A stretch of DNA of 64,000 bases from Candidatus Levyibacteriota bacterium. Lineage in GTDB: Bacteria > Patescibacteriota > Microgenomatia > Levybacterales > UBA12049. The DNA lies in assembly GCA_016182235.1 (NCBI GenBank), contig JACOXT010000003.1, positions 2,209 to 66,208 on the forward strand, written 5' to 3'. This document shows positions 20,374 through 35,130 of the stretch, piece after piece (within the stretch, counting starts at the first letter, position 1; the number at the start of each line of letters is the position of its first letter). Made by a program: the position numbers and the translations under genes. The notes beneath the pieces are model-generated. The model made no database searches. It was given only the letters and a program-made list of their open reading frames with translations, and was not told the origin of the DNA.

Positions 20374-21057
20374 TTACTTTGTGGTAATGTGAATTCTTGC
20401 CTGGTCAAGTATTGCGGGAGCTTTAAGCTGGGTTTTCATTTGCACTTTATATAATTTGTTTCCCTGATCTAATGTAATTGGTTTTGAAACCAAAAATTGA
20501 GGTGTTCCTCCTTCCATAGATACCTCTGAAAACCACACGGGATGTTTGTCTGTTTCATTGAAAAGTCTCACATAGGCAACTTGATTTCCCGTAGGTATTC
20601 TAACCGATGCCTCAAAAACAACGCTCTTGATTGATGGATATTGGGAACTGTCAATATACGCCTTTAGGCCGCCTACATCTTCCCAGTCTTCAGCAGAACT
20701 TGATCCTGATCCAAAAGGCACAAAAAACTCCTTTGTTTGAGAAGTTGCATTACTGGCTGAAACAGGAGATTTTGTTGGTGTCGCATTTTTTTCGCTGGAT
20801 GGCGAAGCTAGCTTAACCGATGATGTCGCTTCATAAATTGCCGCAATACAACTATTTGGACAAATTTGAGACGGTTCTCCCTGGTTTGCTGTGTTTTGGG
20901 CAGGAGTAACTAGAGTATTTTCCTTTCCGGAAGATTTATTAAGATCTCTAAAGTATACAAAATCCAGATAAGCCAGGTTGATAAGTATTATAAGTAGTAC
21001 TATCAAATTAAGTATTTTAAAGGAGAATATGGTGTTAGGGTTTTGGTTATTTTCCAT
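20374..21057 (-). CDS. Hypothetical membrane-anchored exported protein
   Basis: 227 aa with an N-terminal TM helix, a Ser/Thr/Pro-rich linker and a beta-rich C-terminal domain. Confidence 0.45.
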   Translation of the reverse strand: MENNQNPNTIFSFKILNLIVLLIILINLAYLDFVYFRDLNKSSGKENTLVTPAQNTANQGEPSQICPNSCIAAIYEATSSVKLASPSSEKNATPTKSPVSASNATSQTKEFFVPFGSGSSSAEDWEDVGGLKAYIDSSQYPSIKSVVFEASVRIPTGNQVAYVRLFNETDKHPVWFSEVSMEGGTPQFLVSKPITLDQGNKLYKVQMKTQLKAPAILDQARIHITTK

Positions 21058-21101
21058 AAGATGTATATTCTATACTTAACTGTAATTTAAATTTTAAACA
21101 T

Positions 21102-21503
21102 TTGCAAATTCTCAAGATAATGATTTTTGTATGTTATACTTGGATTGTGAGCAACCAAAATCTTCCTTCTTTTTTGATAAGAATGGGACTGGCTTTTGTT
21201 TTTCTATATGCCGCTGTCTATATGACCTTTGCTCCTGAAAAATATATCATTTATTTTCCTGATTTTATGAGGACCTTGGTTCCGGGGAATCCGTTACTTC
21301 ATATATTCGCTATTTTCGAAGTGGTCCTTTCAGTCTTTCTTATTATCGGAAGATTTACTTTTATCGCCGCGATTATTTCTTTTTTGACAATGTTGGCATT
21401 AACAGTTGTTAATTTAGATAAATTTTCTGTTCTTTTCAGAAACGTTTCGATAATCCTTTCCGCCCTTGCCCTCGTTATCCTAAGTAAAAAGAATGAACAA
21501 TAA
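21102..21503 (+). CDS. Small integral membrane protein (DoxX-like topology)
   Basis: Four hydrophobic helices. The track start is a TTG, and ATG 21120 is an alternative. Confidence 0.4.
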   Translation: MQILKIMIFVCYTWIVSNQNLPSFLIRMGLAFVFLYAAVYMTFAPEKYIIYFPDFMRTLVPGNPLLHIFAIFEVVLSVFLIIGRFTFIAAIISFLTMLALTVVNLDKFSVLFRNVSIILSALALVILSKKNEQ

Positions 21504-21544
21504 TTTTAATAGACTAAGCAATATATTGATGTCTTTTGTCCTAA

Positions 21545-21573
21545 TTGACAAGCTATTCGAAAAAGATTAATCT
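21545..21573 (+). promoter_or_regulatory. Sigma70-type promoter (TTGACA-N17-TAATCT) for the TasA-like/vWA gene
   Basis: ttgaca at 21545-21550 and taatct at 21568-21573. The ORF-track 'start' at 21545 is the TTG of this -35 box. Confidence 0.45.
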
Positions 21574-21625
21574 GATTGCGGCATCAACAAGAAGTACCCG
21601 GGCAGGAATCAAAAAGATTTTTAAG

Positions 21626-23038
21626 ATGTCAAAAGCAATCAATACTCGGATAATACTTTCCTTTGTAACACTGCTTTTAGCGGCTTCTGTTATAATCGGC
21701 GGAACTATAGCCTTCTTCTCCGACACCGAAACATCGAAAGAAAATGAAATCGCGGCAGGAGCAATAGATCTTAAGATTGATAACACAAGCTATCTCAACC
21801 ACGCCACGTCTTCGGCAACCACATGGGAGCTTAAAGATCTTACCCCAAACGACTTATTTTTTAACTTTACCGATATAAAACCAGGCGATGAGGGCGAAGA
21901 TACCATAAGCATTCATGTTGATGATAATGACGCGTGGGCGTGCATGGATATGACGCTTACCAAAGATGATGATGTTGACTGTACAGAGCCTGAACTTCTC
22001 GATGATCCAACGTGTTCAGAAAATGATGACTTAAATGATGGAGAACTTGGGGGCTTACTTAGTTTTCTTTTCTGGACGGATGACGGAGACAATGTATTTG
22101 AGACTCACGAATCCGTTATTGCGTCAGGATCGGCGTCGAGTGTTTTGGATAGCAATATTGTTTTGGCAGACGCGGTTACAAACAATGTCGGCGGCCTTCC
22201 TGGAAATCCTTTGACTGGAGGTCAGACATACTATATTGGCAAAGCGTGGTGTTTTGGCACGCTTACTCAAAATCCAGTTGCCGACAATAATGGAATAAGT
22301 CCTATTGTTGATTCAGGAGTACTCTGCGATGGGTCACTCTTGGACAATGCTTCGCAGACAGATTCGGTTATGGGAGACATAAGTTTTAGCGCGGTGCAAT
22401 ACAGAAATAACCCAAGCTTTACTTGCGATGGGACAGAGCCCTCAATTACTCCAACCCCTACACTTACAGCCTGTTTACAGGCAGATGTGATGCTTGTCTT
22501 GGACCGCTCCGGCAGTATCAATTCGGGAGAGCTAGGACAGCTTAAAACCGCGGCAAAAGATTTTGTTGACGCTTTAGGGCTTACCCCACTTGGTATCCAT
22601 GCAGGGCAAACAAGCTTTGCGACAAACGGCAGTCTTGACCATATTCTGAGTTCCAATTCGGTGACTCTTAAGGCGGCAATAGACGCTCTTGTCTCAGGCG
22701 GATTCACAAATCTAAAATCAGGCATTGATTTGGCAACAGGAGAGCTAGCGGGAGTTAACGATAGAGCGGACATAACATCTCCTGACAAGATGATAATTAT
22801 TACAGACGGACATCCAAATAGACCGTTTCCTTCAGCCACCGCTCCTGTCGCGGCAAAATCTTCAGCAGATATAGCAAAGCTGGCAGGAACTGAGATATTT
22901 GTAGTCGGAGTCGGAAGCGATGTCAATACTTCCTATCTGGAGGATGACATCGCGAGTCCCGGACCCGGACATTATTTCCCGGTTAGCGATTACTCGGATC
23001 TGGAAACAGCTTTAGAAAACCTAGACATTTGCGAATAA
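21626..23038 (+). CDS. TasA/camelysin-family N-terminal domain fused to von Willebrand factor A domain, SipW-cognate signal peptide
   Basis: The signal is MSKAINTRIILSFVTLLLAASVIIGGTIAFFSDTETS..AAGAIDL. Blocks are shared with the 23491 paralogue (DIKPGDEGEDTIS, WTDDGDNVFE, YYIGKAWCFG, TQTDS..DISFSAVQYRNN). The C-terminal vWA domain has the MIDAS motif DVMLVLDRSGSI and ITDGHPN. Confidence 0.75.
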   Translation: MSKAINTRIILSFVTLLLAASVIIGGTIAFFSDTETSKENEIAAGAIDLKIDNTSYLNHATSSATTWELKDLTPNDLFFNFTDIKPGDEGEDTISIHVDDNDAWACMDMTLTKDDDVDCTEPELLDDPTCSENDDLNDGELGGLLSFLFWTDDGDNVFETHESVIASGSASSVLDSNIVLADAVTNNVGGLPGNPLTGGQTYYIGKAWCFGTLTQNPVADNNGISPIVDSGVLCDGSLLDNASQTDSVMGDISFSAVQYRNNPSFTCDGTEPSITPTPTLTACLQADVMLVLDRSGSINSGELGQLKTAAKDFVDALGLTPLGIHAGQTSFATNGSLDHILSSNSVTLKAAIDALVSGGFTNLKSGIDLATGELAGVNDRADITSPDKMIIITDGHPNRPFPSATAPVAAKSSADIAKLAGTEIFVVGVGSDVNTSYLEDDIASPGPGHYFPVSDYSDLETALENLDICE

Positions 23039-23058
23039 ACAAGTAATAAGTATAAAGG

Positions 23059-23433
23059 ATGAAGTATGAAGTTAAACCGGAAGATATTAGACAAAGAACA
23101 TTTAAATTTGGACTTAGAATAATCGCACTTTGTAAAGAATTACCAAGAAACGAAGTTAATAGGATTTTAATAAACCAAGTGTTAAGATCCGGGACATCAA
23201 TCGGAGCGAATTTGGAAGAGGCAACAGGCGCGCATACTAAATCGGAGTTTATTAATTGTACGAATATTGCAAGAAGAGAGGCGCGGGAAACGCATTATTG
23301 GCTGAAGTTGATTTATGAAATAAGTAATCAAATGATTAAAAATAAGATGAAAGATTTGATAAATGAGTCTAACGAAATCGTAAGTATACTTGTCGTTTCA
23401 GTTAAAAATTTGCAAAGAAATAACAAAAAGTGA
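23059..23433 (+). CDS. Four-helix-bundle protein (23S rRNA intervening-sequence protein family)
   Basis: 124 aa. RTFKFGLRII...NQVLRSGTSIGANLEEA......EFI....IARREARETHYWL is the family signature. Confidence 0.75.
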   Translation: MKYEVKPEDIRQRTFKFGLRIIALCKELPRNEVNRILINQVLRSGTSIGANLEEATGAHTKSEFINCTNIARREARETHYWLKLIYEISNQMIKNKMKDLINESNEIVSILVVSVKNLQRNNKK

Positions 23434-23437
23434 AAAA

Positions 23438-23472
23438 TTCATACTTCGAAGTTCATAATTCGAAGTTCTGAG
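23438..23472. repeat. Degenerate heptamer array (ttcatac ttcgaag ttcataa ttcgaag ttctgag)
   Basis: Five 7-nt units with constant TTC, ending 19 nt before the 23491 ATG. It is related to the array at 41728-41755. Confidence 0.7.
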
Positions 23473-23490
23473 AAGGGGGGTGATAAAATT

Positions 23491-24402
23491 ATGTTACAGG
23501 CAATTAATACAAAAGTTTTACTAAGCGCAGTAACCATACTCGCGGCAGCAGCAATTGCAATCGGCGCGACATTCGCTTTCTTTAGCGACACCGAAACATC
23601 AACAGGCAATGTCCTAGCCGCCGGCGCAATTGATCTGAAGGTTGACAACACATGTTACTACAACGGTAACGCTTGTGTTCATGGTGAATTTGAAGGTACA
23701 GACACGCGATGTTCTTGTACTTGGGAACCGACTGATCTATCTGAAGAGCATTTGTTCTTTGACCTTTCTGATATTAAACCAGGAGATTGGGAAGAAGATA
23801 CTATTAGCTTGGCAGTCGAGAATAACGAAGCTTGGCTTTGTGCTGATGTTACGCTTACGAGCGATGATGACAATAGCATCACAGAACCAGAAGCAGAAGA
23901 TGGAGACCCTGATACCGCACCAGGAATTGGACTAGGTGAGTTAGCAGACGCTGTTAACTTCTACTGGTGGGCTGATGATGGAGACAATGTCTTCGAGTGT
24001 GTAATGGAACAAACATCTGAAGGCTTAGTGTGTAATCCAGACGCAGAAGGCTCAGAACATCTTTTACCAGCAGGTCCCATGGGGAACCTTGATGTAGACG
24101 AAACAGCAACAGTTGCCCTAGCTGATTCTGATGAAAATATCTGGGGATTACCAGGACCTATTCCTCAAGGAGGGGAAACTTTTTATATCGGTAAGGCCTG
24201 GTGTTTTGGAGACTCGGATATGACTCCTTATCCTCAGGGTGAGCAGAGTGGTCCTGATGAAAGACCAGTAACGTGTGATGGTTCTGATGTGAATAATATT
24301 ACTCAGACCGATAGCTTCACAGCTGATATAGCATTCAGAGCTGTTCAGGCAAGGAACAATGATGAGTTCCAATGTGAGGTTCCAACACCAACCCCATCAT
24401 AA
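23491..24402 (+). CDS. TasA/camelysin-family secreted protein with SipW-cognate signal peptide
   Basis: MLQAINTKVLLSAVTILAAAAIAIGATFAFFSDTETS..AAGAIDLKVDN. It is a paralogue of the N-terminal half of the 21626 gene. The SD is GAAGGGGGGTGAT. Confidence 0.75.
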   Translation: MLQAINTKVLLSAVTILAAAAIAIGATFAFFSDTETSTGNVLAAGAIDLKVDNTCYYNGNACVHGEFEGTDTRCSCTWEPTDLSEEHLFFDLSDIKPGDWEEDTISLAVENNEAWLCADVTLTSDDDNSITEPEAEDGDPDTAPGIGLGELADAVNFYWWADDGDNVFECVMEQTSEGLVCNPDAEGSEHLLPAGPMGNLDVDETATVALADSDENIWGLPGPIPQGGETFYIGKAWCFGDSDMTPYPQGEQSGPDERPVTCDGSDVNNITQTDSFTADIAFRAVQARNNDEFQCEVPTPTPS

Positions 24403-24486
24403 TTTAATCAGTGGTTGGTTTTAGAACAAAGGGAGGTTGCTGAAGTACAAAGCGCCTCCCCGGGACCCTGCGAGAGGTGAAGTTTG

Positions 24487-24575
24487 AATTGCGAAGTGCG
24501 AATTATGAAATCCAAAGAACTTCCGTATACCTCATAGCTCATACTTCATAATTCATAATTCATAATTCATAATTC
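24487..24575. repeat. Heptamer arrays upstream of sipW (aattgcg aagtgcg aattatg ... catagct catactt cataatt x4)
   Basis: 24487-24507 and 24533-24575. The two halves are partly reverse-complementary (gaattatgaa versus ttcataattc). The last unit ends 7 nt before the ATG at 24582. Confidence 0.7.
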
Positions 24576-24581
24576 TTTTCT

Positions 24582-25916
24582 ATGCGTACGATATTCAAAT
24601 GGATAAATATCCTTCTTTCGGTTGGGATTTTTTTTGTAGCATTGGGAGTGCTCTATGTTGCCATTCCGTATTTTGGCAATCAGGCTTTAGTAGTCCGTTC
24701 GGGATCAATGAGTCCAGCAATTGACGCCGGTTCAATTGTTGTTGTCCGCGCGGGCCGGGATTTCATTTCCCCAATTGCTTCTGCTCCTATATACAACACA
24801 GGCGATATTATTGCTTTCCGCTCTGATAAAAATCAAAATACCATCATAACTCACAGAATTGTCGGTACCAAGGCAGAAGCATCCGGCGTTGTTTACAAGA
24901 CAAAAGGAGACGCGAACAAAGACGTTGATGGTTGGGTAGTCAAAGAAGAAAATGTTTTGGGAAAAGCTTCTTTTAATTTACCGCAGTTTGGATATGTTTT
25001 GGCTTTTGCGAGATCAAATTTAGGATTTCCGCTTCTTATTATAGTGCCAGCTTTATTTGTGATCTTGTTGGAGCTTTATAATATTACTAAGACTATAAGA
25101 GAGGCAACAAGTGTAAAAAAGATAAAAATTGTAAGAGAGATAAGAAGCCATCTGCATCATCCGCTTCACCTATCAGGAATTAAGACTTTTGTTCCGATTC
25201 TCTTGATTGGTTTGGCAATCCCAATCGCTTTCGCGTTTCCAAGCGATACGGAAACAAGTTCCAACAATGTCTTTACCGCCGCGGAGGATTTTTTTGTAGA
25301 TTCATCTACAACTCCAACCCCACCGCCTCCTCCGACCGCGTTTGGAATCGCGGATCATATCGTGATCAGCGAGGTACAGATTGCCACTTCCGGCGCAACC
25401 ACTAGTGATTTTGTTGAACTTTATAATCCTACATCTTCCAGTATCAATTTAAGTGGATTCCATTTAGTAAAACGCACATCAACAGGAACTTCTTCTGCAA
25501 ATCTGAAAGCATTTTCTTCCTCTGATATTATTCCAGCTCACGGTTTTTATTTGTGGGCTAGTACAGACGGAGGGTATGCCACGCAAATTGGGGCAGATGT
25601 AAGTACAGGAGAAAACATTACAAGCAATAACAGCGTTGCCCTTTTAGATTCTTCCGATGTAATAGTTGATGCTGTTGCTTGGGGAAGTGGCCATACAGCT
25701 CCTCTTATTGAGGGAAGCGCTTTTTCAATAAATCCTGGTGCAAATCAAAGCATGGAAAGAAAAGCATTGTCAACATCAACAGTTGCTACAATGGATATTG
25801 GAGGCGCGGATGAGTTTAAGGGAAACGGTTTTGACTTGGATGATAATTCAACAGATTTTATTCTAAGAACTCTTTCTCAGCCGCAGAATAGCGGAAGTTT
25901 GATAGAAATGCCCTAA
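24582..25916 (+). CDS. sipW: SipW-type (ER/archaeal-type S26B) signal peptidase I fused to a lamin-tail domain
   Basis: The peptidase boxes are VRSGSMSPAI, IITHRIV and KGDANKDVD, followed by a C-terminal TM helix. After that come a second TM helix, AFAFPSDTETSSNNVFTA (nt 25242-25259 = SDTETS) and a Pro/Thr linker. The LTD pattern is IVISEVQ...SDFVELYNPTSSSINLSGFHL...NNSVALLDSSDVIVDAVAWG. Confidence 0.8.
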   Translation: MRTIFKWINILLSVGIFFVALGVLYVAIPYFGNQALVVRSGSMSPAIDAGSIVVVRAGRDFISPIASAPIYNTGDIIAFRSDKNQNTIITHRIVGTKAEASGVVYKTKGDANKDVDGWVVKEENVLGKASFNLPQFGYVLAFARSNLGFPLLIIVPALFVILLELYNITKTIREATSVKKIKIVREIRSHLHHPLHLSGIKTFVPILLIGLAIPIAFAFPSDTETSSNNVFTAAEDFFVDSSTTPTPPPPPTAFGIADHIVISEVQIATSGATTSDFVELYNPTSSSINLSGFHLVKRTSTGTSSANLKAFSSSDIIPAHGFYLWASTDGGYATQIGADVSTGENITSNNSVALLDSSDVIVDAVAWGSGHTAPLIEGSAFSINPGANQSMERKALSTSTVATMDIGGADEFKGNGFDLDDNSTDFILRTLSQPQNSGSLIEMP

Positions 25917-25917
25917 T

Positions 25918-26272
25918 GTCATTCTGGGGAGTTCCGCTTAGCGGGACGACTCCAGAATCAGAGAAATATGAAGCAAATGTTTGTTTATATTATGGCAAAT
26001 CATAGGCCCACTCTATATACAGGCGTGACAAACAATCTGATCAAGAGAGTTTGGCAGCATAAGCAAGAATTGATTGAGGGTTTTACGAAAAAATACCATT
26101 TACATAAGCTTGTTTATTACGAAACTGTAGAAGGAGAATTACAAGCGATTGTTAGAGAAAAACAAATAAAGGATATGAATAGACAAAGCAAACTGAAAAT
26201 GATTTGGAAGTTCAATCCAGACACGCATGATTTATATGAATCAATTTCGGATTCTGGACAAGCCAGAATGAC
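25918..26272 (+). mobile_element. GIY-YIG gene cassette bounded by 10-bp terminal inverted repeats and terminal hairpins
   Basis: gtcattctgg at 25918-25927 and ccagaatgac at 26263-26272 are exact reverse complements. Each end folds on ATTCTGG/CCAGAAT stems (25921-25958 and 26251-26269). A 77-bp derivative lies at 42536-42612. Confidence 0.7.
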
Positions 26273-26276
26273 ATAG
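25968..26276 (+). CDS. GIY-YIG nuclease family protein
   Basis: FVYIMANHRPTLYTGVTNNLIKRVWQHK.....GFTKKY.LHKLVYYE.......AI.REKQIK is the GIY-YIG/UPF0213-type signature. The last 4 codons lie in the right TIR. Confidence 0.8.
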   Translation: MKQMFVYIMANHRPTLYTGVTNNLIKRVWQHKQELIEGFTKKYHLHKLVYYETVEGELQAIVREKQIKDMNRQSKLKMIWKFNPDTHDLYESISDSGQARMT

Positions 26277-26284
26277 GGAAAAAT

Positions 26285-27112
26285 ATGAAAAAGTTAGTCA
26301 GAATTTTAGTTTTGCTTCTTGTCATAGGTTTACTACTTAGGTTTTCAGGCGTGGAGCTTTTTAGGCCTTCGACAGTTCGCGCTGTTGGAAATTTGGTTGT
26401 TGATTTTCATGTTCCGGAAGGGGATCCTATTTTTACTGTTAACGACTTCAAGCCCTGCGACGTTGAAGAACGTACGGTTGATATTACGAATAATTACGAC
26501 GAGCCTAAGCAAATTAGCATTATTGGAGTAAATACAGAAGAAACAGGAGAAATAGCAAATGTTATCCAGTTTGCAATCTCAAACGGCAGCGCCGATATTT
26601 ACGGCGGGGCAACGGGCACAAAAACCCTAAAAGATTTTTTTGAAGACTCTGAGGATCCTTCGGGAGTTGTTTTGGCAATCCTAGATCAAAATCAGTCTCA
26701 AAATTTTTTCTTTACAGCTACTTTTGAGTGCGATAGCGGAAATGAATTTCAGGAGAAAAAAGTGGTCTTTGATCTTAGAATTGGTGTTTTAGTTGACTTT
26801 GGAGAATGTCCTGATGTTGAAGGGACTATAAAGGTATATTATCCTGAAGGTTGGCACGCGATTGTCGGGATGGACGAAAATCAGTATGGGGCAGACAAGG
26901 TATTTGATATAGGAGGAAATAATTTTGTTCAGTGTTATTTCCCGCCATCTGGCAACGAAGGAATCCAGACAAATTGGCTGGCAGCCGCGGATTTTATAGA
27001 GTCGCAAATTAGTGAGTTTATTGCCGATGGATGGACTTTTATCACCAATGGATTCGACTGGGGTTTGCCAATTCAAGAATATCTCGCCAAAAACTTCCTC
27101 TTTACGTTCTAA
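26285..27112 (+). CDS. Exported protein, probable third TasA/camelysin-fold paralogue with extra C-terminal domain
   Basis: It has a signal anchor, FTVNDFKPCDVEERTVDITNN, and GNEFQEKKVVFDLRIG, which resembles the camelysin/TasA C-terminal strand motif. The assignment is weaker than for the other two paralogues. Confidence 0.45.
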   Translation: MKKLVRILVLLLVIGLLLRFSGVELFRPSTVRAVGNLVVDFHVPEGDPIFTVNDFKPCDVEERTVDITNNYDEPKQISIIGVNTEETGEIANVIQFAISNGSADIYGGATGTKTLKDFFEDSEDPSGVVLAILDQNQSQNFFFTATFECDSGNEFQEKKVVFDLRIGVLVDFGECPDVEGTIKVYYPEGWHAIVGMDENQYGADKVFDIGGNNFVQCYFPPSGNEGIQTNWLAAADFIESQISEFIADGWTFITNGFDWGLPIQEYLAKNFLFTF

Positions 27113-27149
27113 TCCTACCAATTTTGCCGGATGTGGGACATGGCGTAGT

Positions 27150-28700
27150 CTAGATCTCCAAAAACTTTTTTTCGCGGATTAAATATGTTGTTTGGATCAA
27201 AAATCTTTTTTGTTTGTGCTCTCCGGTGATTGACCCTTTGTATTTTGAGATAATTGGATAGACCTGATTTGAGATTTCCGGTATTGCTTTTATCACTTTA
27301 GGATCGGCAATATCAACTAAAGGAATAATATGAAAATTACCGTTCCCTATATGTCCGGCAACAGTGTAAATAAATTCCGGATACTTCTTGAGAATGTTTG
27401 TTACTTGTAAAAGCACCTCATTAATGTATTCAGGTTTTATAACGAAATCATCTATAAATGGAACCGTATGCTTGTTTCTAATTTTTTTACGAAGAAGATT
27501 AAAGCTCTCGCGTCTTACAAGCCAGTATTTTTTTTCCTGGTTTCCTTCGGCAATTTGAATTAGAGGATGTAAGGGTTTAAGTTTCTCGCGAAGGATTGTC
27601 AATTTTTGATCTATTTCTTCCCTGTTGTTACTGGTAAAATCAACCTGCAAAACGAGTTTTGGAAGACTTCTCCCAAGGAACATGGAAAGAAAAGCAGGGA
27701 GAAAAGCAAGTCCTGCCTGAATCATGCCAACAGGTCCCAATTGTCTCATAAATTCTGGAAAATACTTAAGAGCAAGTTTTAATGTGTTGTCATCATATGA
27801 TTCGAAACTTTCCGGTTTAAGAGCTGAAACTTCATTTATAATTTGTCCAAGATGAGACATATCCTTAAGATATATGATTAACATTCCCCGATGTTTGTGT
27901 ATGGGAACAAGCTCCAAATCTCCTTCCAGAAGCATTCCAAGCGTTCCTTGAGCGCCAGTCCAAAGCTGAGATAAATCAAACGTATTCCTCTTTTTGTCTA
28001 TAACATTCCAGAGAAAGTAGCCCGCTGAATTTTTGGTGACATCTGGTTTTGCTTTCATGATTAGCTCGTAATTTTCTGTAATAAGATGATGTATTTTTTT
28101 ATAAATCTCCCCCTCAAAATCTTTTTGTATTAGTTTTTTTTCAAGTTCCTCTTTTGATAGGGGTTTTAACTCATAAGTATTTCCATCACTTAGAACCACT
28201 TTTACTCTTTTTACATATTTCTCTGTTTTGCCATATTGAAGAGACTTTTCTCCGCCTGAATTGTTGTTGATAATTCCGCCCATTGCGCAAATCTCACGGC
28301 TGGCAGGGTAGGAAGGAAAAATAAGATTGTGTTTTAGAGTTTCTATTTCAAAATCGCGATAATAAACTCCGGGCTCTGTGGTCGCGGTATTGTTATTTAT
28401 TTTTGGTGTGTGGTTAAAATATTTGGCAAATTCAACGATAATGGAATCATTTATTGACCCACCAGACATATCTGTTCCTGCCGATCTTGCGGTTAGAGAA
28501 AGGGTAGGATTGTTTTTTTTATTTTCGCTTACTAATTTTACAAGTACCTTAACATCTTCTTCACCTTTTGGAAAAACAACTACCTGTGGTTTTATTTCAA
28601 AAAGAGAAGCATCATGACTGTATTCTTTTAGAGTTTCCTCATCGGTTAGAACATCGCCCTTTACGGTTTCTTTTAGCTGTATGAGTAGGTTGCCGTCCAT
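27150..28700 (-). CDS. FAD-linked oxidase (GlcD/D-lactate dehydrogenase-like), C-terminus aberrant
   Basis: The PCMH-type FAD-binding N-terminal domain is present (VVFPKGEEDV..LV, ARSAGTDMSGG, GGIINNNSGG) along with GSITGEH. The conserved terminal FDPNNIFNPRK motif is only found in another frame. Confidence 0.7.
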   Translation of the reverse strand: MDGNLLIQLKETVKGDVLTDEETLKEYSHDASLFEIKPQVVVFPKGEEDVKVLVKLVSENKKNNPTLSLTARSAGTDMSGGSINDSIIVEFAKYFNHTPKINNNTATTEPGVYYRDFEIETLKHNLIFPSYPASREICAMGGIINNNSGGEKSLQYGKTEKYVKRVKVVLSDGNTYELKPLSKEELEKKLIQKDFEGEIYKKIHHLITENYELIMKAKPDVTKNSAGYFLWNVIDKKRNTFDLSQLWTGAQGTLGMLLEGDLELVPIHKHRGMLIIYLKDMSHLGQIINEVSALKPESFESYDDNTLKLALKYFPEFMRQLGPVGMIQAGLAFLPAFLSMFLGRSLPKLVLQVDFTSNNREEIDQKLTILREKLKPLHPLIQIAEGNQEKKYWLVRRESFNLLRKKIRNKHTVPFIDDFVIKPEYINEVLLQVTNILKKYPEFIYTVAGHIGNGNFHIIPLVDIADPKVIKAIPEISNQVYPIISKYKGSITGEHKQKRFLIQTTYLIREKKFLEI

Positions 28701-34307: not shown

Positions 34308-34832
34308 ATGAAAATCAACAGTCTTTTTTTAGATTTTCTGAAGTTTTTTCCGACTAAAGTTGCATATGCTCATTGTGATATTCCTTGTGGGATTTATGAT
34401 CCCCATATGGCTCAAATGGCATCGCATACTGTTATCAGAATGACGCAGATGTTAAATGATTTAACTGCAGAAAAAGATATTCCATTTGAAGAAAGAAAAA
34501 AAATTATCCATCAAATCGCAAGACTAACTAAAGTTAAAGAAGAGCATGCAGAGCTTGTTAAGCATGAAATAAGAGTTTTATGGGCAGATTATTTTAAGGA
34601 AGAACATCTTAAAAAGTATCCGGATCTTCATAGTCTTATATTTAAAATACTAAAACTTGCTTCCAAAGCTAGACAAGAAATCAATATGGATGCTGCAAAT
34701 GAACTTTTGGAGAATGTGCAAAAAATGGCAGAGATATTTTTTGAAACAAAAGGATTAAAATCAGTACGCGTTAAATCACCTTATCCCACAGGCGGGGAAA
34801 TTGTGTTACAGGACGTCAGACGTCCCCAGTAA
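34308..34832 (+). CDS. sodN: Nickel superoxide dismutase precursor
   Basis: A 21-aa leader is followed by HCDIPCGIYDP, the Ni-hook motif (His-Cys-x-x-Pro-Cys-Gly-x-Tyr). Confidence 0.85.
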   Translation: MKINSLFLDFLKFFPTKVAYAHCDIPCGIYDPHMAQMASHTVIRMTQMLNDLTAEKDIPFEERKKIIHQIARLTKVKEEHAELVKHEIRVLWADYFKEEHLKKYPDLHSLIFKILKLASKARQEINMDAANELLENVQKMAEIFFETKGLKSVRVKSPYPTGGEIVLQDVRRPQ

Positions 34833-34836
34833 ATAA

Positions 34837-35130
34837 ATGCTCCTTTCAATCTTTAAGATTTCCGGCCACAGTATGGAACCTGCGATTAGAGATGGTCAGA
34901 ATGTTTTTGTAAGTGGCATTTCTTACTTATTTTCTAAGCCAAAAGCTGGAGACATAGTAGCTTTTAGAAAGAATGAAAAAGTATTTGTAAAAAGAATTGC
35001 TAAAATTAATAATGATAATTATTTCGTAAGAGGAGATAATAGGGAAGACAGTCTGGATAGTAGGAAAATTGGGTGGATAAATAGAAAAGAAATTTTAGGG
35101 AAAGTAATTTTCAAAATTTCTAATTACTAA
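34837..35130 (+). CDS. sodX: NiSOD maturation protease (S26-like)
   Basis: 97 aa with SGHSMEPAI, VFVKRI and RGDNREDSLDSR. It lies immediately downstream of sodN. Confidence 0.7.
   Translation: MLLSIFKISGHSMEPAIRDGQNVFVSGISYLFSKPKAGDIVAFRKNEKVFVKRIAKINNDNYFVRGDNREDSLDSRKIGWINRKEILGKVIFKISNY

Follow-up and report, generated by a model that had tools for sequence, protein, structure and literature searches.

We analysed a gene at positions 24582..25916 on the forward strand of a 64,000-nucleotide stretch of DNA from a Candidatus Levyibacteriota bacterium, a member of the Candidate Phyla Radiation (CPR). The whole stretch is termed the window. The gene encodes 444 amino acids in one uninterrupted reading frame with its stop codon at 25914-25916, and a database entry with 100% identity to the protein is annotated 'signal peptidase I'. 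From the N-terminus it was found to contain a signal peptidase domain, an internal signal peptide, a short motif that recurs in the products of two genes further upstream, a flexible linker and a lamin-tail domain (LTD). The two upstream genes encode proteins of 497 and 303 amino acids that resemble TasA of Bacillus subtilis, and a gene downstream encodes a third TasA-like protein, of 275 amino acids, which lacks the motif.

The peptidase domain covers amino acids 1-165 (nt 24582..25076, forward strand) and is of the SipW or endoplasmic reticulum (ER) type. The TIGR02228 model for archaeal/SipW-type signal peptidase I matched amino acids 9-163 with 88.4 bits (cut-off 51.85), and Pfam S26 matched the domain with 23.8 bits (cut-off 22.9). 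The equivalog model for Bacillus SipW, NF046067, gave 109.6 bits, which is below its cut-off of 190. By these scores the domain is classed as a homologue, not an equivalog, of Bacillus SipW. SipW/ER-type enzymes have a His where bacterial LepB-type enzymes have a Lys. The catalytic residues of the window protein are Ser42 (24705-24707) in SGSMSP, His91 (24852-24854) in THRIV and Asp110 (24909-24911) in KGDAN, all on the forward strand. These were unchanged across 61 homologues, and S40, G41, M43, P45, G109 and N112 were also invariant in 61 aligned fusion proteins. The nearest solved relatives of the peptidase are SEC11A/C (profile match E ~1e-14; Foldseek match to 7p2q, E = 4e-6). When the whole fused protein was compared to the PDB with Foldseek, SEC11C/A and lamin Ig domains were found and, more weakly, SipA of Streptococcus pyogenes. 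With an invariant triad and a SEC11-like fold the enzyme is predicted to be active.

Hydropathy analysis of the open reading frame (ORF) identified three hydrophobic segments, at about 9-31, 141-165 and 201-218. The first transmembrane (TM) helix, TM1, comprises amino acids 9-31 (nt 24606-24674). TM2, amino acids 141-165 (nt 25002..25076), is the C-terminal membrane helix of the peptidase; it was modelled as a helix over 148-178, and the stand-alone SipW proteins of the split loci described below end soon after it. It is followed by a basic loop, amino acids 166-200 (nt 25077..25181), made up of the SipW C-terminal tail and the n-region of the internal signal peptide. The loop contains seven Lys/Arg and two Asp/Glu residues, and 87 of 92 fused homologues have a net positive charge there. 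The positive-inside rule therefore assigns this loop to the cytoplasm, which places the motif behind TM3 outside, on the same face of the membrane as the active site. TM3, amino acids 201-218 (nt 25182..25235), represents the h- and c-region of the internal signal peptide and ends in A216-F217-A218, with cleavage predicted between A218 and F219 (nt 25235 and 25236).

Directly behind AFA lies the motif FPSDTETSSNNVFTAA (amino acids 219-234, counted as +1 to +16; nt 25236..25283), which resembles a TasA donor strand and includes SDTETS at 25242-25259. The linker that follows, EDFFVDSSTTPTPPPPPTAFGIAD (amino acids 235-258, nt 25284..25355), is rich in Pro and Thr, and a Pro/Thr/Ser linker was found in homologues irrespective of their cargo. 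The remainder, amino acids 259-444 (nt 25356..25913), consists of the LTD and a conserved C-terminal extension. Pfam LTD (PF00932) matched amino acids 259-368 with 49.5 bits (cut-off 34.3; E = 6.2e-13), and the modelled domain gave Foldseek matches to lamin B1 (3jt0, E = 6e-6) and to the lamin A/C Ig domains.

An AlphaFold2 (AF2) model of the fused protein was built on a 61-sequence alignment and had a mean predicted local distance difference test score (pLDDT) of 83. The peptidase (residues ~1-178) was mostly at pLDDT 85-95, with helices at 2-27 and 148-178, and the LTD with its extension (256-444) formed a self-contained domain at pLDDT 90-97 in this monomer prediction. Loop residues 182-197 had a pLDDT below 50. 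The same was found for residues 214-252, that is the cleavage site, the strand and the linker (30-46 for the linker), which belong to neither folded domain. Such disorder between two confident domains resembles TapA of B. subtilis, where a flexible N-terminus precedes a complete Ig fold. The original prediction for this gene, made from the letters and reading frames of the window, had described a complete SipW-type peptidase in residues 1-165 and a reading frame continuing through a further TM helix into a lamin-tail domain, and both descriptions were confirmed by the model scores above cut-off, the triad conserved in 61 homologues and the 444-codon frame. Its proposal that enzyme and cognate substrate segment share one polypeptide was supported, and the charge of the loop (7 against 2) indicates a topology that would permit cleavage.

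Predicted internal cleavage site and donor-strand-like motif

The sequence SDTETS occurs exactly three times among the 63,991 residues of the six-frame translation of the window, once in the fused gene and once in each of the two upstream TasA-like genes (21545..23038 and 23491..24402). The curated model TIGR04088 for the SipW-dependent-type signal peptide (cut-off 19) matched these two genes with 30.9 and 22.4 bits, respectively. In genomic position the peptidase is linked to such TIGR04088-positive genes. We also built an independent profile from 48 TasA-like N-termini of other loci, leaving out fusion proteins and window sequences. Searched against the window, it ranked the two TasA-like genes first (E = 3.6e-23 and 4.2e-19) and, in third place, the internal segment of the fused gene (E = 1.1e-6); the next match was at 0.2. 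A reverse profile, made of TM3 and motif from fusion proteins only, matched the N-terminal signal peptides of TasA-like proteins in related loci at 25-47 bits. The pattern common to the internal segment and the TasA-like N-termini consists of a hydrophobic region, small residues at -3 and -1, and F-S-D-T-E-T-S-x-x-N-x-F-x-A. In the 61 aligned fusions N229 was invariant and D222 and S226 were at least 90% conserved. The motif had earlier been taken to be shared with both TasA-like neighbours, which these searches bear out, and to end their signal peptides, which needs correction: the signal peptide ends at A-F-A and SDTETS belongs to the start of the mature protein.

In the cryo-EM structure of the TasA fibre, residues 28-38, straight after the SipW cleavage site, form the donor beta-strand that completes the sandwich of the next subunit, with hydrophobic contacts made by F29, I32 and F39 (PMC9674648). 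TapA has an N-terminus homologous to this donor strand in front of a complete Ig-type domain and starts filaments by strand complementation; its residues 44-57 alone are enough in vivo (PMC10151520). A link from the window to these structures was drawn through paralogues of about 200 amino acids in related loci, since a direct PDB sequence search with the 303-amino-acid TasA-like protein was uninformative and gave only weak, spurious matches to the interleukin-2 receptor. The paralogues match Pfam Peptidase_M73 (PF12389) over their full length, and their profile aligned with solved TasA, again over the full length, at E = 1.1e-8 (5of1) and E = 1.5e-8 (8aur). In this alignment S-x-x-N-x-F-x-A-G-x-L-D-L falls on TasA S34...F39...G42-T43-L44-D45-L46, so that positions +8 to +16 of the motif correspond to S34-G42, the Phe at +13 to F39 and the Gly at +16 to G42. 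Positions +1 to +15 thus take in the donor strand of TasA together with a few residues beyond it.

The similarity between the module of the fused protein (TM3, strand, linker and LTD) and the TasA-like proteins spans positions -3 to +15 and ends exactly at +16, which was Gly in 35 of 35 TasA-like proteins and Ala or Ser in 24 of 25 modules. From this sharp end it follows that the module has the cleavage site and a complete donor strand, and no part of the TasA body. We consider it reasonably probable, by analogy with TasA and TapA, that the motif functions as a donor strand. The original prediction had treated it as a cleavage motif; its position on the TasA donor strand argues against so narrow a role.

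The cleavage site was tabulated for 118 fused representatives, at most ~50% identical, which were anchored only on the mature side (Asp at +4, Asn at +11, a hydrophobic residue at +13). Position -1 was Ala in 70, Ser in 44, Gly in 2, and Thr and Glu in 1 each, while position -3 was Thr in 63, Ser in 37, Ala in 15, Val in 2 and Gly in 1. Position -2 was variable and often bulky, and Gly or Pro was found at -5 in 47. Pro was never found at +1 (0/118), and Phe or Tyr, as in true substrates, was present at +2 in 98 of the 118. The pattern has the form of a classical type I signal-peptidase signature. The uncharged run of TM3 is short, with 17 residues (interquartile range 17-18, n = 92) compared to 21 in the signal peptides of TasA-like proteins, and the AF2 helix of TM3 spans only 198-212. 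In stand-alone LTD proteins a basic residue close to the cleavage site distorts the corresponding length. Small residues at -3 and -1 were kept in 117-118 of 118 representatives, and a permanent anchor gives no reason for such persistence; cleavage between A218 and F219 has therefore probably been retained, so far as can be judged from these residues. It is predicted to yield products of 23.8 kDa (pI 9.9) and 23.5 kDa (pI 4.1), and the latter agrees with the released fragment of roughly 24 kDa that had been proposed.

Fused and split forms of the gene

A word-indexed search returned 255 homologues, the best 120 of which were classified. Among these were 75 proteins with the order SipW-motif-LTD, two with SipW-motif-LTD-LTD, 24 stand-alone motif-LTD proteins, 10 SipW-motif proteins without cargo and four with another cargo. 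We also ran an exhaustive HMMER search with residues 100-260 only (box E, TM2, loop, TM3, motif and linker) against representatives of 50%-identity clusters. It found 279 representatives at E <= 1e-10, and SipW-TM3-motif was present in 124 of the best 150: 67 were followed by an LTD, 29 by another C-terminal region of more than 90 amino acids and 28 by a short tail. There are therefore at least 124 clusters (50% identity) of fused proteins with peptidase, TM3 and motif. Public databases label the fusion proteins just 'signal peptidase I'.

Loci were collected from reference genomes (79 loci, found with a profile from a 16-sequence alignment) and by exact protein look-up, and profiles made from the domains of the window served to classify them. 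The 43 non-redundant SipW loci comprised 25 fused loci (18 with an LTD and seven without), 14 split loci and four in which no donor-only module could be recognised. In the split loci a SipW of 164-246 amino acids ends shortly past its C-terminal TM helix and is followed by a separate module gene, which in several cases overlaps it by 4 nt. The product of this second gene has an ordinary signal peptide, the same motif, a Pro/Thr linker and an LTD (absent in one). At locus L001, for example, the peptidase stops after RKFSQP, and the next protein has MKKLVFVLTFFIFLGGVRQSTGS before the predicted cleavage point and FLTDTEKAENNILSVA behind it. By comparison with the split loci, TM3 corresponds to the signal peptide of a formerly separate downstream gene, and we regard this origin of the internal signal peptide as very probable. 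Orthologues with the same fusion and split versions of it, which had been suggested as a way of checking the gene, thus both exist in number.

A crude neighbour-joining tree of the SipW domain placed 24 fused loci in one clade and three more elsewhere. Within the fused clade the LTD was lost several times and TM3 with the motif was always kept. At L003, a locus in synteny with the window, the peptidase stops after the linker and the LTD is found on the downstream protein instead. The cargo-less versions parallel the sufficiency of TapA residues 44-57 alone. As far as can be told from these comparisons, the conserved element is peptidase, TM3 and strand, and the LTD is replaceable; the earlier view of the LTD as a conserved cargo was not upheld, as many fused relatives lack it or have something else in its place. 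That the fusion is real, old and widespread is almost certain. The gene is an evolutionarily stable fusion of two once-adjacent genes, sipW and the gene of a secreted donor-only protein.

Cargoes other than an LTD were observed behind SipW-TM3-motif in P0080 (680 amino acids), P0078, P0090 and P0101 and in the 29 further representatives. They include a Gly/Asn/Thr-rich region of ~440 amino acids and domains of ~110-150 amino acids, none with a Pfam match. The strand seems to serve as a general adaptor for varied domains. In two other proteins, P0138 and P0139, a Cys-containing domain is carried on the peptidase behind a junction without an SDTETS-type motif.

Internal translation starts were also considered. 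The only candidate in the window, a TTG at codon 208, lies inside TM3 without a Shine-Dalgarno (SD) motif and was rejected. As no usable start is found between TM2 and the motif in the window, the LTD part can be made only within the fusion. In seven of 23 relatives an SD-like motif precedes an in-frame start, which may be used there. The records of several loci (L007, L009, L010, L014, L042, L051 and others) bear titles such as uncultured Gammaproteobacteria, Thermoplasmata archaeon, Nanoarchaeota or Halobacteriota. Mis-binning or mislabelling of contigs from metagenome-assembled genomes is the probable cause, and the loci match Patescibacteria relatives.

Neighbouring genes of the proposed fibre locus

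The 303-amino-acid TasA-like protein (23491..24402, forward strand) consists of signal peptide, donor strand and body. In addition to its TIGR04088 match, Pfam M73 was found over residues 7-55, and hhalign against the full-length M73 paralogues gave 99.7% over residues 7-113. It is the predicted major fibre subunit and a predicted substrate of SipW. The 497-amino-acid ORF (21545..23038, forward strand) matches M73 over residues 35-84 and carries a C-terminal VWA domain (E = 2.3e-19). By comparison with the N-terminus of a paralogue, its true start is likely M28 at nt 21626, the annotated TTG being probably too far upstream. The VWA domain has a metal-site motif of the DxSxS type, LDRSGSINS, and could be an adhesion-type domain displayed along the fibre or at its end.

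The downstream protein of 275 amino acids (26285..27112, forward strand) has a signal peptide, a body starting at VGNLVVDF, and a Cys-containing C-terminal domain of ~105 amino acids. It has no donor strand and is therefore described here as acceptor-only. Compared by hhalign to the full-length M73 paralogues it gave 98.5% over residues 1-170 (E = 3.8e-15), and the alignment is gapped where the SDT.TS segment lies. Its AF2 model was confident for residues ~35-170, and the top PDB match was the TasA fibre 8aur_A (E = 3e-4), followed by weak Foldseek matches to the donor-strand pilins FimG, PapA and CfaB. In all 36 anchored members of the downstream family an A/V/T-x-A site lies right before [VIA]-G-D-L-x-V-D-W. 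This places the predicted mature N-terminus one residue ahead of the Gly equivalent to +16. The donor motif was found in none of 44 members. In 34 of 39 loci a member of the family adjoins the donor module on its 3' side, frequently with a 4-nt overlap.

Three gene types can accordingly be distinguished by domain order: TasA-like proteins with signal peptide, strand and body; modules with TM3, strand, linker and LTD or other cargo; and the downstream family with signal peptide, body and a variable C-terminal domain (RTX repeats, an LTD or the ~105-amino-acid Cys-containing domain). Cargo domains shift between the two end-piece genes, i.e., the module and the downstream family. In the window the Cys-containing domain lies at 26794-27109 (amino acids 170-275); it had no Pfam match and was modelled by AF2 at low confidence. 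Its pattern is CP..G.I...Y..G.HAIVG...G.D.V..[LI]G.NN..QC[FY]CP..G..GIQTNW. The domain (P0138-P0167) was also observed as stand-alone secreted proteins of ~190 amino acids, several of them on the opposite strand beside related clusters, and as SipW-fused cargo in P0138 and P0139.

Two small genes lie within the locus, a gene of the '23S rRNA-intervening-sequence protein' family (23059-23433, forward strand) between the two TasA-like genes and a gene with a GIY-YIG nuclease domain (25968-26276, forward strand) between the fusion and the 275-amino-acid gene. In relatives the genes flanking these two are adjacent or overlapping, and the two are possibly mobile insertions. A tandem repeat, TCATAAT x 5.3, is located at 24539-24575 directly before the start codon of the fused gene, and strings similar to 'cgaattatgaa' are also present in the intergenic region before the 303-amino-acid gene (~23443-23466). 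A promoter and terminator scan of 21000-27400 was uninformative on operon structure, with promoter-like counts equal to chance and terminator-like counts within ~2 standard deviations.

The LTD subtype with a C-terminal extension ending in ...SQPQNS was observed as the first domain past the signal peptide in many very large CPR surface proteins of up to 2,539 amino acids, which lack the donor motif (loci L039-L083; e.g., L042 6917-14533 and L058 6893-13306). In these organisms the LTD may serve generally for envelope anchoring or adhesion. The sole other S26-type match in the window was a soluble protease of 97 amino acids (34837-35130, forward strand; SGHSMEP ... VKRI ... GDN). It directly follows a 174-amino-acid ORF (34308-34832, forward strand) with HCDIPCG, a Ni-hook motif of the Ni-superoxide dismutase type, and from these motifs the two genes at 34308-35130 resemble a sodN/sodX maturation pair with no relation to the fibre locus.

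Proposed function and comparison with known systems

In the donor-only partner joined to SipW, a signal peptide would come first, then an N-terminal donor strand of the TasA type and, behind a flexible linker, an Ig-like LTD that is complete in itself. Taken together, we read the gene as a fibre initiator of a TapA-like, donor-only kind that is joined to its own peptidase, and give this reading a probability of about 0.6. TM1 would insert with its N-terminus inside, leaving the catalytic domain outside; TM2 would return the chain to the cytoplasm and TM3 would lead it out again, offering A216-F217-A218 and F219 at the outer face beside the active site. A SipW domain, either its own or that of a neighbouring molecule (in cis or in trans), would cut after A218. 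The peptidase would keep TM3, and the 23.5-kDa fragment of strand, linker and LTD would be freed with the N-terminus FPSDTETSSNNVFTAA. By analogy with TapA, the freed strand would enter the beta-sandwich groove of a TasA-like subunit, the 303- and 497-amino-acid proteins being the candidates, and the fragment would start or cap one end of a fibre built by donor-strand exchange. An LTD unable to accept a strand would make it an end-piece, either anchor or adhesin, while the strand-less 275-amino-acid protein may take the last free strand and cap the other end. In this scheme we infer that cleavage occurs and that the strand binds a TasA-like groove; the receiving subunit and the binding partner of the LTD are likewise proposals.

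Several observations weigh against this interpretation. TIGR04088 did not match the internal segment when amino acids 177-444 and 188-241 were scanned alone (E up to 10). The window protein has Pro at +2, as do five of the 118 fused representatives, where 32 of 35 TasA-like proteins have Phe; the position is equivalent to the TasA contact F29, and with Pro there binding could be weaker or aimed at another partner. The TasA-likeness of the 303- and 497-amino-acid proteins is supported over their first ~110 residues only, and their PF12389 match covers signal peptide and strand only. For the 275-amino-acid model the TM-scores against TasA were modest (0.38 and 0.44). Co-variation of the two motifs within a locus speaks for the interpretation, in that the module motif shared 9.08 of 15 positions with the TasA-like motif, compared to 8.0 +/- 0.23 in shuffled pairs (p about 5e-5), but this figure includes shared ancestry. 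Strand insertion is proposed by analogy with TapA, and cleavage could be carried out by another cellular signal peptidase or not take place at all.

If TM3 were not cut, it would be a permanent third helix; the strand would capture the first TasA-like subunit and the peptidase would tether the base of the fibre with the LTD beside it. The stability of the fusion to a membrane protein across deep divergence fits this arrangement, as do the cargo-less forms with a short tail, which would suit simple anchors. No TapA homologue is known from CPR genomes, so that an anchor of some kind is required, and cleavage could be slowed by the Pro at +2 that the window's subclade has. We nevertheless consider it unlikely, as a permanent anchor leaves unexplained why the -3/-1 pattern, the variable -2 and the lack of Pro at +1 were kept in 117-118 of 118 representatives. 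TM3, with 17 uncharged residues in a row and 15 residues in the AF2 helix, is moreover short, the strand begins at the first residue past the membrane without a spacer for a docking subunit, and the split relatives plainly secrete the same module. The motif might instead be nothing but a determinant of SipW recognition and cleavage, with the LTD an ordinary secreted cargo, no role in a fibre and a fusion that merely ensures processing. TIGR04088 does treat the region as a 'SipW-dependent-type signal peptide', and the LTD is a common N-terminal module of the large motif-less surface proteins mentioned above. Substrate recognition by type I signal peptidases depends mainly on the h-region and on positions -3 and -1. 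Conservation out to +15 is then unexplained, and the conserved stretch coincides with the structurally defined donor strand of TasA. The LTD is also dispensable where the strand is not, the downstream family has an A-x-A site without the motif, and the donor-only and acceptor-only genes are complementary and adjacent. A role of this kind is therefore also improbable.

A tethered motif could further be imagined to fill the substrate groove as a pseudo-substrate, cut inefficiently and keeping the enzyme switched off until the motif is displaced. The covalent link between enzyme and substrate-like segment on one face of the membrane and the Pro at +2 in the window protein fit this; yet Phe or Tyr is the rule at +2 among fused representatives (98/118) and +1 is never Pro, the split relatives have no tether at all, and cargo domain and linker would be needless. 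We regard such regulation as highly improbable. Finally, two genes may have been joined by a sequencing or assembly error or by a recent pseudogene-like read-through. A single indel could do so, given that the genes of split relatives overlap by just 4 nt, but the same fusion was found in many independent assemblies from different samples at 35-67% identity, and the fused forms make up one large clade on the neighbour-joining tree. The basic loop of ~35 residues at the junction has kept its charge, and each domain is intact and under selection. For practical purposes an assembly artefact is ruled out, and read-through can be given next to no weight. As a whole, the original prediction was supported in part, in that an enzyme with its own substrate, and likely self-processing, is backed by the comparative data; it fell short in that the meaning of the gene becomes clear only together with the upstream TasA-like and downstream strand-less genes.

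The fused initiator and peptidase are best compared to the tapA-sipW-tasA operon of B. subtilis. There too a dedicated ER-type signal peptidase is encoded together with subunits of the TasA/camelysin family, and TapA is an accessory protein with a homologous N-terminal strand in front of a complete Ig-like domain and hence a donor only. The window locus would work like tapA-sipW-tasA on every testable point. In B. subtilis tapA and sipW are translationally coupled, with overlapping stop and start codons, which has been taken as a hint of functional association (PMC9674648, PMC10151520). The window differs in that the initiator-like module is covalently attached to the C-terminus of the peptidase, in the order sipW then module and not tapA then sipW, and in that its globular domain is an LTD or other cargo and not a TapA fold. 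Pfam and NCBIfam searches of the fused protein returned S26 and LTD only, and no TapA structure was among the PDB fold matches listed. By these matches the module is classed as a TapA analogue, not a member of the TapA family. The dedicated strand-less TasA-like gene is absent from B. subtilis, and the host here is a CPR bacterium. The locus may thus be viewed as a variant of the TasA/SipW fibre locus in which the initiator is fused to the peptidase and a dedicated acceptor-only cap is present.

TasA homologues have been noted in Patescibacteria, and the archaeal bundling pili AbpA/AbpB are donor-strand filaments of the TasA superfamily in which the TapA-like AbpB is proposed to give the first strand (PMC9245690). 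AbpX/Tafi loci encode predicted tip and minor subunits, often with a dedicated signal peptidase I, and the only peptidase fusions mentioned for TasA-superfamily loci join the enzyme to a DUF5305 accessory protein or give it extra TM helices (bioRxiv 10.64898/2026.01.04.697558). In both systems peptidase and tip or initiator are separate genes, whereas in the window the peptidase is fused to its substrate. Our literature search, with incomplete coverage, yielded no account of a signal peptidase joined in one protein to its own substrate or initiator. The original prediction likewise knew of no signal peptidase with its own cleavage site and a cargo.

Other fibre systems are similar in part. Chaperone-usher pili are also donor-strand polymers with specialised ends, one accept-only and adhesin (FimH-type tip), the other donate-only (PapH-type terminator). 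Their proteins and machinery are unrelated to those of the window, which has no chaperone or usher, and the likeness is functional, bar the weak FimG/PapA/CfaB matches. SipA of S. pyogenes, a signal-peptidase homologue of the SipA/LepA type that is needed for pilus polymerisation (PDB 4n31), is likewise a membrane protein of the signal-peptidase fold dedicated to the assembly of one surface fibre; the 4n31 entry describes it as a signal peptidase homologue. In the window the catalytic triad is intact and the fibre is TasA-type. S. pyogenes SipA, on the other hand, is catalytically inactive and serves sortase-built pili. Internal signal peptides are also known from viral polyproteins and from iRhom2, a non-canonical substrate of signal peptidase (PMC7618786), where a multi-spanning precursor is cut after an internal hydrophobic segment of N-in/C-out orientation. 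Enzyme and substrate are separate in these cases, whereas the substrate segment of the window protein is part of the enzyme itself.

The fusion provides independent evolutionary evidence for a physical or functional coupling of SipW and initiator, which in B. subtilis was only hinted at by the tapA/sipW overlap, and makes this coupling testable with one protein. It suggests that cleavage and fibre initiation take place at one and the same membrane protein. An enzyme with its own cleavable substrate would be a compact model for cis versus trans cleavage by ER-type signal peptidases, and for the fate of a signal peptide that is unable to diffuse away. The combination of a constant strand with a variable cargo (an LTD, none or another domain) suggests a natural way to hang domains on the end of a fibre. 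More speculatively, and with considerable doubt, the peptidase of TasA-type systems may be, beyond a processing enzyme, a membrane platform that starts the fibre, supplying by self-cleavage one initiator strand per SipW at the place where fresh TasA-like subunits emerge, with the attached TM3 possibly gating its activity; together with the strand-less protein this would make up a complete CPR fibre machine, possibly for host attachment. In CPR bacteria, which attach to hosts by surface structures, our reading of the locus predicts a three-part donor-strand fibre with a donor-only initiator, subunits made of strand plus body, and an acceptor-only cap.

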